DNA of 40,612 nucleotides, taken from sequence record MT446393.1, one strand, 5' to 3'. A model generated the notes under the pieces. That model was not told the DNA's origin. It did no database searches and worked only from the letters and a program-made list of their open reading frames with translations. Position 1 is the first letter of the stretch. Each line of letters opens with the position of its first letter. This DNA is from Escherichia virus TH16. Made by a program: the position numbers and the translations under genes. This document shows positions 22,788-24,950 of this stretch, piece by piece.

Positions 22788-23015
22788 TTAAATCATACTC
22801 ATTAGGACATATCCTTCAGCGATGTCACCAACGTCAGCAATGTGGACAACCTTACGCGCTACCTGTTGTCCAGTATACCCGTTGTCCCACTCATTCAGGA
22901 TAAGCCAGTCGCCAACCTTAAAGTCCCGGTAGTTAAGTCTCAGCTCTGCTGTCTTTAGACCTAGCTGTACCGGACCAAAGTGCTGGCGGTGAATCTTCAG
23001 GTTGTGACTAGCCAT
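22788..23015 (-). CDS. DUF3850 / ASCH-like small protein (75 aa) inserted between gp11 and gp12
   Basis: KIHRQHF...LKTAELRLNYRDFKVGDWLILNEW pattern typical of DUF3850/ASCH-fold proteins; ATG overlaps the gp11 stop. Confidence 0.65.
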   Translation of the reverse strand: MASHNLKIHRQHFGPVQLGLKTAELRLNYRDFKVGDWLILNEWDNGYTGQQVARKVVHIADVGDIAEGYVLMSMI

Positions 23016-23581
23016 TAGTCCCTCCCGATGTCAGACATCATGTTGTAGCGACCAGTGTCCATCTCGTACTCCATAACCTGCTGATAGAGTTCTTCTTCCT
23101 GCTCACGAAGGTATAGCTCTGACTCTGGGCTACCGAAGAACTTAGCGTTGAACTCACGGCTAGCTTTAGTGACGATGTAGTCCCTGAAGACCACAGGCAT
23201 CTCAGAGAATGGTTTCATCTCCACAAGCTCTACCGTGATAGGGTCAGTGAAAGTGGTTGACTGAGTGGATAGGTCGTACAGGTATCCACCCATGTTGCTG
23301 TAGTAGCTGGTGGCCCCAGTGGTCATTACACGAAGGTATGATGGCAGGAATCTAATCCTATTGTCTTGGACATCAGGTGTCAGGACAGCAGCTTCGTTGA
23401 TGTTAAAGTTCCATCCTTTAGCTTGGACCTGACGATTGACACGATGCAGGATACGTTGAGCGTTCGAGACGTCAGCGTTTCCCTCGTCAAGCTGTAGGAC
23501 TGCTGGTTCACCGATAGCAGCTAGCATATCGTTGATGGCGTCTAAGTCATCGTTAGTATTCAGTGGAATGTATTGAGCCAT
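23015..23581 (-). CDS. gp11: Tail tubular protein A (188 aa)
   Basis: Similarity to T7 gp11 (AIGEPAV, KGWNFNI, YIVTKASREFN, MEYEMD); AAGGAGG RBS. Confidence 0.9.
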   Translation of the reverse strand: MAQYIPLNTNDDLDAINDMLAAIGEPAVLQLDEGNADVSNAQRILHRVNRQVQAKGWNFNINEAAVLTPDVQDNRIRFLPSYLRVMTTGATSYYSNMGGYLYDLSTQSTTFTDPITVELVEMKPFSEMPVVFRDYIVTKASREFNAKFFGSPESELYLREQEEELYQQVMEYEMDTGRYNMMSDIGRD

Positions 23582-23594
23582 AGGCCCTCCTTAA

Positions 23595-23632
23595 GCAAAA
23601 ACCCCTCAAGCACCCGAAGGCACCCAAGGGGT
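23595..23632 (-). terminator. T-phi-like intrinsic terminator between the capsid gene and gp11
   Basis: Minus-strand hairpin CCCCUUGGGUGCC-UUCG-GGUGCUUGAGGGG (with G-U pairs) followed by UUUUUG. Confidence 0.7.
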
Positions 23633-23637
23633 TTCAA

Positions 23638-23928
23638 TTAGTTTGTGAAAGATATGTTGAAGGAACGCACAGGCGAACCGTCATACCCAACAATCACCAG
23701 ACCTTCCACGCCAGAGGTGGCCTTGAAGTAGAGACTGTTGGTTCTACGGGAGTAGCTAACACCATCAGGCGTAGTCACCTCAAGCAGCGACCAATCGGTC
23801 ACATCTGAAAGCTCAGGGAAGTCAACCTTCAGGCTGGTCCCAACCGTAGAACTGTACGTCTCTAAGGTAGGACCCTCTGTAGAGAGGGCCTTAAAGGTCG
23901 TTAACCCCCCAGCGCCGCTGTGAAAACC
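23638..23928 (-). other. gp10B: Candidate programmed -1 frameshift region: slippery GGTTTTC (23922..23928) plus a 94-codon open -1 frame (10B-like capsid extension)
   Basis: Slippery heptamer 6 codons before the 10A stop; -1 frame has no stop for 94 codons and ends at TAA just upstream of the terminator. Confidence 0.6.
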
Positions 23929-24950
23929 AGTGCGCCTGCCGCTTCTGGACGCAGACCTCCGTGACCCATAGCGTACTTACCAACAATCAGGTCGCCCTGG
24001 GCATCGACGTCACGGTCACGTTCCAGCGCCAAGTCACGCAGCTTCACAGTACCCACAGCAGAACGGTGAGAGAACAGACCCACAACGTTGTCCATAGCAA
24101 CTTTAACGTCGCCAGCAGCAGTCGCCGGGAATGCGTGTTTCTGGCCGGAAGCGATAGTGATACCATCGTCACCACGGGTCTCACCAGCACCACCCTGTAC
24201 CAGATGCGGAACCTCAACAACAACGAAGCCCATCACGTTACGGATGTTACCAGTCTCTGGATCAATCAGCGCAGCATAGTTAGCAGCGTTCGGCATCAGA
24301 GCCGCGAGGATTGCAGAGTAGTTGTCCGGCGTGGTGTAGAAGTAACGGTCTCCAGCAGGAACGTAGTTGGAGGTCAGCTTCGCACGGGCAATGGTCAGTT
24401 GACCGATGATTGCTTCGCCCAGCTTAGCCGGAGTGTTCAGATCGGCTTTAGTACCAACTTCAAGTACTGACGCAGTGCCAAGACCGGCAATATTCTCGTT
24501 GGATGAAGCCGGGAGGTTACACAGGAGAGCCATTTCAGCCAGAACCGCACCATCAGCAGCGATAGCCAGAGCTTCACCCAACTGGTTGGAGTACTCGCCA
24601 GCCACGTCATAGTGGTTCATCGCGTCTTCAATGTCGAAAATCATCACATCGGCAGTCAGCAGACCATCAATGGTAATCACTTTCTCGGTATGTTTGATAC
24701 CTTTACGCTTATCGGACAGTCGCTCACCCGGAGCTAGATACACACCGGAGGTGCGACCCATGACCGGGAACTGAGCAGACTTACCGTTCTGAATGGTACG
24801 GACAATATGCTTGTCAGCAGTTACAGAGCGGCGAGTGAATGCGGTCAGGACTTCACCAGCAAATACCTTCAGGAACAACGCAAGAGCGTCGGAACTGGAT
24901 TTGCCTTTACCTTGGTCTGTACCAATTTTCTGACCCGGAACGTTTGCCAT
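23901..24950 (-). CDS. gp10A: Major capsid protein (349 aa)
   Basis: Strong similarity to T7 gp10A (KHTEKVITIDGLLTADV, ALMPNAANYAALIDPE, HRSAVGTVKLRDLALER). Confidence 0.97.
   Translation of the reverse strand: MANVPGQKIGTDQGKGKSSSDALALFLKVFAGEVLTAFTRRSVTADKHIVRTIQNGKSAQFPVMGRTSGVYLAPGERLSDKRKGIKHTEKVITIDGLLTADVMIFDIEDAMNHYDVAGEYSNQLGEALAIAADGAVLAEMALLCNLPASSNENIAGLGTASVLEVGTKADLNTPAKLGEAIIGQLTIARAKLTSNYVPAGDRYFYTTPDNYSAILAALMPNAANYAALIDPETGNIRNVMGFVVVEVPHLVQGGAGETRGDDGITIASGQKHAFPATAAGDVKVAMDNVVGLFSHRSAVGTVKLRDLALERDRDVDAQGDLIVGKYAMGHGGLRPEAAGALVFTAALGG

Follow-up and report, generated by a model that had tools for sequence, protein, structure and literature searches.

What happens at the end of the major capsid protein gene of Escherichia virus TH16, where an open −1 frame runs on past the capsid stop from a sequence known from gene 10 of T7? 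Is this frame translated, by which route, and what would it add to the capsid? Judged from the whole stretch of DNA analysed here (40,612 nt, record MT446393.1; hereafter, the window), the most probable answer, to which we would give a probability of about 0.9, is the programmed −1 ribosomal frameshift of gene 10 of the T7-like phages, occurring in a Kayfunavirus-like genome and giving a 10B protein. The 10A/10B shift of T7 is a standard example of recoding, and finding it again adds little to biology: the frameshifted feature is real but ordinary, and it is already known, since it is annotated as joined to the capsid gene in the phages Peacock and CR8 and since the 10B protein of K1F has been used for display. 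What we add, namely unified annotations, a fold prediction and the description of a cassette structure, is modest.

The capsid gene end and the −1 frame

The structural genes of the window lie on the minus strand, and so do all the features that matter here:

24950..23901, minus strand: major capsid protein gene (gp10A homologue), 349 aa, from the ORF list and its translation
23979..23901, minus strand: overlap allowing −1 joining of the frames, from the −1 stop TAA 23979..23977 to the 0-frame stop TAA 23903..23901
23928..23922, minus strand: slippery heptamer G GTT TTC (0 frame CTG GTT TTC, Leu-Val-Phe341-343), from the sequence; the same as in T7 gene 10
23922..23863, minus strand: predicted disordered linker, extension codons 1–20 (HSGAGGLTTFKALSTEGPTL), AlphaFold2 pLDDT 45–53
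23890..23871, minus strand: local RNA hairpin GGCCCUCU-CUAC-AGAGGGUC, candidate stimulator, 32 nt 3' of the heptamer, −13.2 kcal/mol
23862..23641, minus strand: predicted seven-strand Ig-like beta-sandwich, extension codons 21–94 (74 residues; PHROG 7473), AlphaFold2
23640..23638, minus strand: −1 frame stop TAA (10B end), at the same place ahead of the terminator wherever the extension of a relative is intact
23635..23598, minus strand: Tphi-like intrinsic terminator hairpin and U-tail, with CCCC at 23631..23628; −25.2 kcal/mol, z = −3.2, terminator scan
23581..23015, minus strand: homologue of the T7 tail tubular protein A, the next gene after the capsid gene, from the ORF list

The 349-aa ORF (calculated mass 36.4 kDa) is a homologue of gp10A, matching the Pfam family PF21703 (Gp10A-like) with E = 1e-104 and sharing the C-terminal motif GHGGLRPEAAGA(L/V)VF with T7. 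Its region is 92–97% identical to many Kayfunavirus genomes (K1F-like, Studiervirinae); against gene 10 of K1F, the nucleotide identity of the capsid gene is 95%. The 3' end of the gene reads ...GCA CTG GTT TTC ACA GCG GCG CTG GGG GGT TAA on the minus strand, and the protein accordingly ends in ...GALVFTAALGG*.

Six sense codons (ACA GCG GCG CTG GGG GGT) separate the TTC of the heptamer from the 0-frame stop, TAA 23903..23901. This is the spacing claimed in an earlier sequence-only reading, whose coordinates (23638–23928) are right, the strand being minus. The heptamer is in the X XXY YYZ phase, a few codons 5' of the 10A stop and at the position homologous to that in T7; over all 40.6 kb of the window, the coding strand contains no other GGTTTTC. 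The same reading had equated it with the slippery sequence of the T7 10A/10B shift, and in NC_001604 it is indeed identical at the homologous Val-Phe: T7 has GTG GTT TTC AAA GTG GAG TAA, with three sense codons rather than six between site and stop, and its annotated joined 10B runs on as ...VVF|QSGVMLG... in the −1 frame, with which ...ALVF|HSGAGG... of the window aligns.

Beyond the heptamer, the −1 frame is open for exactly 94 codons, as had been claimed (HSGAGG...NISFTN, 23922..23641, minus strand; full sequence HSGAGGLTTFKALSTEGPTLETYSSTVGTSLKVDFPELSDVTDWSLLEVTTPDGVSYSRRTNSLYFKATSGVEGLVIVGYDGSPVRSFNISFTN), and then meets TAA. The nearest −1 frame stop upstream of the heptamer is the TAA at 23979..23977 on the minus strand, so the region in which the two frames can be joined measures 73 nt in the window; in three relatives (loci L003, L004 and L006) the overlap is just 31–40 nt, and the heptamer still lies inside it. 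Joining the frames at the heptamer gives a product of 437 aa and 45.9 kDa, in keeping with the minor species of about 46 kDa suggested earlier, whose residues 1–343 are common with 10A. Its predicted tryptic peptide across the fusion junction is YAMGHGGLRPEAAGALVFHSGAGGLTTFK, and VDFPELSDVTDWSLLEVTTPDGVSYSR is an example of a peptide sequence from the extension domain.

According to the frameshift reading, most ribosomes would stop at TAA 23903..23901 and release the 349-aa major capsid protein 10A, and a minority would slip back by one nucleotide on G GUU UUC (23928..23922). In the slip, tRNA-Phe would re-pair from UUC to UUU, and tRNA-Val, sitting on GUU, would re-pair just partly on GGU. 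Shifted ribosomes would then read 94 more codons in the −1 frame and stop at TAA 23640..23638, before the Tphi terminator. The product would be a minor capsid protein 10B made of residues 1–343 of 10A, a flexible linker of some 20 residues and an Ig-like beta-sandwich of about 74 residues; it would co-assemble in the shell, where some of the subunits would then carry an extra domain on the outside. Homology with T7, T3 and K1F leads us to infer a ribosomal shift with an efficiency in the region of 10% (the T7 frameshift product amounts to about 10%, as cited in PMC1635266), a 10B that is incorporated into virions and an additional domain that faces outward.

Alternatively, the −1 ORF might be a separate small gene, translated by internal initiation and not fused to the capsid protein. 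Many records annotate it in this way, as a 'minor capsid protein' or 'hypothetical protein' of 54–87 aa, and so does a published account of a Pectobacterium phage, in which it figures as a gene lying 3' of the capsid gene (PMC7693777). However, the −1 extension of the window contains no ATG, and its only start-like codons are GTG, the first of them at codon 41, within the predicted beta-sandwich and without an upstream Shine-Dalgarno-like sequence. The earlier description is correct in each of its elements; its statement that the frame has no start codon of its own holds for ATG and for any start yielding the whole domain. The GTG start that gene callers have chosen in relatives is GTT in the window, and the starts called in different relatives disagree with each other, hence the range of product lengths. 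Moreover, the frame stays open back to the heptamer in every locus, through a linker that is poorly conserved, and the synonymous sites of the heptamer are frozen. The lack of a usable start in the window, together with the frozen heptamer, makes independent initiation very unlikely.

A point in favour of a separate gene comes from relatives of the PE3-1 type (Escherichia phage PE3-1, loci L004 and L020). There, an ATG of the −1 frame shares a base with the capsid stop as TAATG (GGTTAATGACC), resulting in an 87-aa ORF with its own ATG; at this position the window has TAACG. In the PE3-1 lineage, termination–reinitiation could provide an extra route to the free domain.

Conservation of the slip site and of the extension

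We collected 51 distinct versions of the 17 codons for GHGGLRPE.AGA.VF.. from relatives and compared their codon usage. GTT TTC was unchanged in 50 of them, whereas the flanking Ala and Gly codons used three synonymous forms each; in the window capsid gene as a whole, GTT accounts for 13 of the 29 Val codons (45%). The sole exception was T3, which has GTG CTC CCA AAG at this place and shifts on C CCA AAG. GTT is preceded by G in most loci, by A in Pektosvirus and by C in two loci of Przondovirus. Since this first base of the heptamer varies, the conserved core is GUU UUC and re-pairing in the P site must be weak, so that the efficiency of the shift is not predictable. From these patterns we infer that slippage of tRNA-Phe in the A site, from UUC to UUU, would dominate. 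Such a mode of slippage agrees with a review in which the shift motif of T7 gene 10 opens with G_GU, classed there as intermediate between hexanucleotide and heptanucleotide sites (PMC5009743).

An identical 437-aa product would arise if the phage RNA polymerase added one U at the run of four U residues, that is, by transcriptional slippage. The site does contain a T4 run, the record of Citrobacter phage CR8 marks 'tttt' as a feature, and the sequence alone fits either route. We nevertheless find this route very improbable. Four U residues make a run far shorter than those known for efficient polymerase slippage. In the literature, the identical site of T7 is treated as one of ribosomal frameshifting (PMC5009743, PMC1635266).

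A tblastn search with the 94 extension residues matched 454 phage records. About 136 of these, from Kayfunavirus and its relatives (phages of Escherichia, Salmonella, Citrobacter, Enterobacter and others), were at least 60% identical, and about 318, chiefly Klebsiella Przondovirus (K11- and KP32-like) and Pectobacterium Pektosvirus, were 42–52% identical. We inspected about 70 loci from GenBank and IMG/VR, leaving out one frame-broken assembly (L005). In all those with an intact capsid gene, a homologous ORF was found in the −1 frame, open from the heptamer to a TAA located just 5' of the terminator. Five Studiervirinae genera have their extension in the −1 frame, without exception: Kayfunavirus, Przondovirus, Pektosvirus, Caroctavirus and Teseptimavirus (T7). 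Between the first four, the amino acid identity of the extension is 42–52%.

Compared with the window, the −1 frame of the relatives shows dN/dS values of 0.15–0.6, even where synonymous sites are saturated, and every indel in the extension is a multiple of three. These data support a frame that is under purifying selection and conserved as protein across genera. In several lineages, a −1 frame stop lies only 9–12 nt 5' of the heptamer, whence the short overlaps of 31–40 nt. Despite the poor conservation of the linker, a stop between heptamer and domain was absent in all lineages inspected. Stops close upstream but never between heptamer and domain are the pattern of a frame that is entered at the heptamer. 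The suggestion of a conserved −1 frameshift signal is therefore supported, both by GTT TTC in 50 of 51 segments and by the constraint on the −1 ORF, and the ORF and its slip site are conserved together.

Could the open frame nonetheless be a chance occurrence or a relic, yielding no useful amount of extended protein? At the base composition of the window, 94 or more open codons in a row would arise by chance with a probability of about 0.9%, no negligible figure for a single genome, and one relative (L022, below) carries a truncated extension. Yet the sequence is conserved at the protein level across genera whose synonymous divergence is saturated, with dN/dS below 1, the slip site is invariant, and a fold is confidently predicted for the extension. 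The coding constraint excludes a chance origin, and we regard a chance or relic frame of this kind as extremely unlikely.

In the truncated relative (IMGVR_UViG_2974604219_000001, locus L022, 1501..1790), the extension diverges past residue 53 into a hydrophobic tail, and gene 11 follows immediately, without the Tphi hairpin. This may be a natural loss of the distal half of the Ig-like domain and of the terminator, or an assembly artefact; if the loss is real, the domain may be dispensable. Another peculiarity concerns Przondovirus, in which the capsid 0 frame ends in the tandem stops TAA GCG TAA (columns 17–25 of alignment A2). The first of these varies (TAA, CAA or TCA) and the second is invariant, so that the length of 10A differs by two residues from one isolate to another.

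Predicted fold and relatives of the extension

Structure prediction of the extension, which the sequence-only reading had listed among its checks, was carried out with AlphaFold2 on an alignment of 21 sequences. The model comprises a disordered linker, whose amino acid sequence is poorly conserved between genera although its frame is open in every locus inspected, followed by a seven-strand beta-sandwich with a pLDDT of about 90 over residues 21–94. The predicted sandwich is Ig-like, as in other phage domains appended by frameshifting, and its best structural match was the Ig-like domain of lambda gpV. In BFVD, one entry alone matched the domain closely: a 76-aa 'minor capsid protein' from Pectobacterium phage PP81 that is a member of the same family as the extension.

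Sequence searches gave little information on the extension. PHROG 7473, labelled 'unknown function', matched the extension over residues 15–94. A Pfam search of the extension returned no family and only a sub-threshold match to Peptidase_M14; a sequence search of the PDB gave weak matches to carboxypeptidases only, the best with E = 0.0035 and 0.015 for the matched stretch. We take the PDB matches as due to chance and count the extension as having no solved relative by sequence. A word-indexed search of 5.8 billion proteins found only ORF fragments of 54–87 aa from the same locus. An exhaustive profile search of 1.84 billion representative proteins found short ORF fragments of the locus as well, plus weak matches to proteins with Ig-like repeats, and no in-frame fusion of the capsid protein with the domain was present among these 1.84 billion. 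As far as the databases searched show, the Ig-like domain is always reached through a frameshift.

The best of the weak profile matches was a protein with four BACON repeats, P0037 (Por-secretion-tail), with an hmmsearch E = 1e-11 summed over five stretches. When the extension profile was aligned to one BACON repeat of P0037, hhalign gave a probability of 71% and E = 3.6e-5. The window sequence has no direct Pfam match to BACON (PF13004 or PF19190), and neither the window nor three relatives matched Big_2 (PF02368) at E <= 1, whereas the extension of T3 matches Big_2 at 4e-10. Between the window and T3 extensions, hhalign returned a probability of 0.4%, that is, no sequence or profile similarity. 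We therefore read the extension as a predicted Ig-like domain in a sequence family of its own, possibly a distant relative of BACON.

Three kinds of 10B extension exist among the Studiervirinae. The T7/K1F type is about 50 residues long, is not Ig-like and follows the slip site G GTT TTC; the T3 type contains Big_2 and follows C CCA AAG; the window type, PHROG 7473, is predicted to be Ig-like and follows G GTT TTC.

With the 10A/10B pair of T7 (Teseptimavirus), the window shares a homologous capsid gene, the identical heptamer near the 3' end of that gene, at the corresponding Val-Phe, and a −1 ORF that ends just 5' of a Tphi terminator with CCCC. The extensions themselves are unrelated in sequence, and that of T7 is not Ig-like (PMC5009743); it has 57 residues after the shift, T7 10B being 53 residues longer than 10A, so that the window extension is longer than the T7 one, as the sequence-only reading had noted on the basis of a figure of about 53. 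We found no homology to the 10B tail of T7 and K1F (...EETLTP.Q.AARTRAAN...), from which the window extension differs in length and predicted structure. Hence the description of the product as 10B-like is apt for its mechanism and position but not for the extension itself, which is unrelated to T7 10B and predicted to be Ig-like.

K1F, the type species of Kayfunavirus, has the heptamer and the terminator of the window and a capsid gene 95% identical at the DNA level, but its extension is 48 residues long and of the T7 type (...EETLTPQQKAARTRAAN...). The alignment of the two genomes, at 95% identity, breaks off 7 nt past the heptamer and resumes at the last codon before the −1 stop, to continue through the terminator and gene 11. 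In between, 271 nt of the window (23914..23644, minus strand) face 130 nt of K1F (NC_007456 22175..22304, equivalent to L010 1176..1305), and no DNA is alignable between the two extensions. The identity on both sides of this unrelated stretch implies that the extension is a swappable cassette between slip site and terminator.

T3 (Teetrevirus) resembles the predicted arrangement in carrying a C-terminal Ig-like domain on a fraction of its capsid subunits, through a −1 shift at the end of gene 10. It differs in shifting on C CCA AAG, two codons further 3', in having a Big_2 domain dissimilar to that of the window in sequence and profile, and in a 10B stop that lies about 160 nt from Tphi. Atkins et al. 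count the T3 extension, unlike that of T7, as Ig-like, and remark that frameshifting is a frequent way of attaching Ig-like domains (PMC5009743). The 10B proteins of CR8 (Caroctavirus) and Peacock (Kayfunavirus) belong to the same extension family as the window, with the same heptamer and a joined −1 frameshift CDS, and differ from the window feature in essentially nothing.

More broadly, the predicted domain resembles a class of Ig-like domains on phage structural proteins that was reportedly delineated by Fraser et al. in 2006 and is said to include the C-terminal domain of lambda gpV, Hoc and the decoration protein of N4. The resemblance lies in the predicted seven-strand beta-sandwich, in its place at the C-terminus of a structural protein and in the frameshift through which it would be reached; the difference is that the window domain falls in no Pfam Ig family and has a weak profile link to BACON repeats. 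For phage Ig-like domains, weak glycan binding at the host surface or in mucus has been proposed. By analogy, and as a hypothesis only, the window domain might bind weakly to glycans of host or mucus surfaces.

RNA structures, annotation and practical consequences

The terminator downstream of the −1 frame is a hairpin of 17 bp whose sequence is the same in K1F and other relatives, and the homologous Tphi of T7 is annotated in NC_001604. The sequence-only reading had placed the TAA 7 nt before this hairpin, which is close to what we find: the G+C-rich core begins 6 nt past the TAA, and weak G-U and A-U pairs reach to within 2 nt of it. In T7, frameshifting is reported to be promoted in part by the CCCC of Tphi, which lies more than 200 nt 3' of the site (PMC5009743). 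The CCCC of the window (23631..23628) sits about 290 nt 3' of the slip site, inside the Tphi-like hairpin. We considered a pairing of this CCCC with the G-run near the capsid stop (GGGGGG, about 23910..23905) and dropped it, because close relatives lack the G-run.

No classical stimulator structure was found 5–9 nt 3' of the site, and Rfam returned no family for 23550..24050. The upstream GCAGGCG was rejected as a Shine-Dalgarno stimulator, as it is dictated by the Ala-Gly-Ala codons and varies among relatives. The hairpin at 23890..23871 is locally strong, falling among the most stable 0.25% of coding-strand windows of 30 nt; the surrounding 92-nt region is not significant (z = −1.5). As the equivalent regions of K1F, PP47 and T3 are not significant either, we do not claim this hairpin as part of the signal of the window.

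Hairpins of differing sequence are found 20–35 nt 3' of the site in Przondovirus, in CR8-type phages, where the hairpin is strong (z = −3.3), and in K1F. In Przondovirus (L006, L008, L009 and L031–L072; alignment A2, columns 27–69) the RNA hairpin has 18 bp, starts 20 nt 3' of the site (20–62 nt) within the linker-coding part of the extension, and has a folding energy of −21 to −31 kcal/mol (z = −4.1). Over 32 distinct sequences it is 98.8% paired. Two pairs show compensatory changes (A-U to G-C and C-G to U-A), accompanied by amino acid changes, and three pairs are altered on one side only, all of which represents few independent events. The Przondovirus hairpin may act as a stimulator of the shift, in which case its spacer is unusually long.

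These observations could be combined into a broader, and in our judgment rather doubtful, scenario. The segment from slip site to terminator would carry a BACON-like, glycan-binding Ig cassette, exchanged among T7-like phages of Enterobacterales and conferring an adherence to mucus or to host capsule or LPS that the short tail of K1F would not; the hairpins 20–35 nt 3' of the site, covarying in Przondovirus, would act as a long-spacer element that sets the 10B:10A ratio.

As to prior annotation, the record of Escherichia phage Peacock (about 94% identical) builds a 'minor capsid protein', equal in length to the fusion predicted here, from two pieces and cites CR8. The CR8 record joins 10B, with an extension 51% identical to that of the window, as 'predicted translation by a -1 internal frameshift' and places a misc_feature on tttt. 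It also states 'matches in mass spectrometry analysis' for 10B, in a note that does not specify extension peptides; the genome announcement of CR8 does not discuss the frameshift. Publications on K1F mention both the −1 frameshift and the minor capsid protein, and GFP and Ig-like adhesins have been displayed on its virions through the C-terminus of 10B (PMC6277420, PMC13370021); recently, BACON domains were displayed artificially on K1F 10B for adherence to epithelia (PMC13370021). Most other records keep the ORF apart from the capsid gene, as a small 'hypothetical protein' or 'minor capsid protein'.

The practical value of the present analysis thus lies in annotation, given that the ORF is kept as a separate gene in at least one paper and in the majority of the related GenBank records, of which there are several hundred. 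PHROG 7473, hitherto of 'unknown function', can be described as the capsid frameshift extension, a predicted Ig-like surface domain. For phage display or therapy engineering on K1F-like and KP32-like scaffolds, C-terminal insertions in 10B would be carried by an Ig-like domain that is already there in nature. What the capsids would display differs between natural isolates, and this could affect mucus adherence or pharmacokinetics.

Two minor observations concern the records and the surroundings of the gene. The labels given to the −1 ORF range over 'hypothetical protein', 'minor capsid protein' (for a 64–87-aa gene), 'XRE family transcriptional regulator', 'major head protein' or none, and a form joined with the capsid gene is confined to a few records (Peacock, CR8). 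Between the genes for tail tubular proteins A and B, the window carries a 75-aa ORF (22788..23015, minus strand) that matches Pfam DUF3850 (E = 1e-17) and ASCH (E = 3e-5). K1F and SH4 have no space for such an ORF between genes 11 and 12, and some Kayfunavirus relatives (PE3-1 and NS1) have it too.
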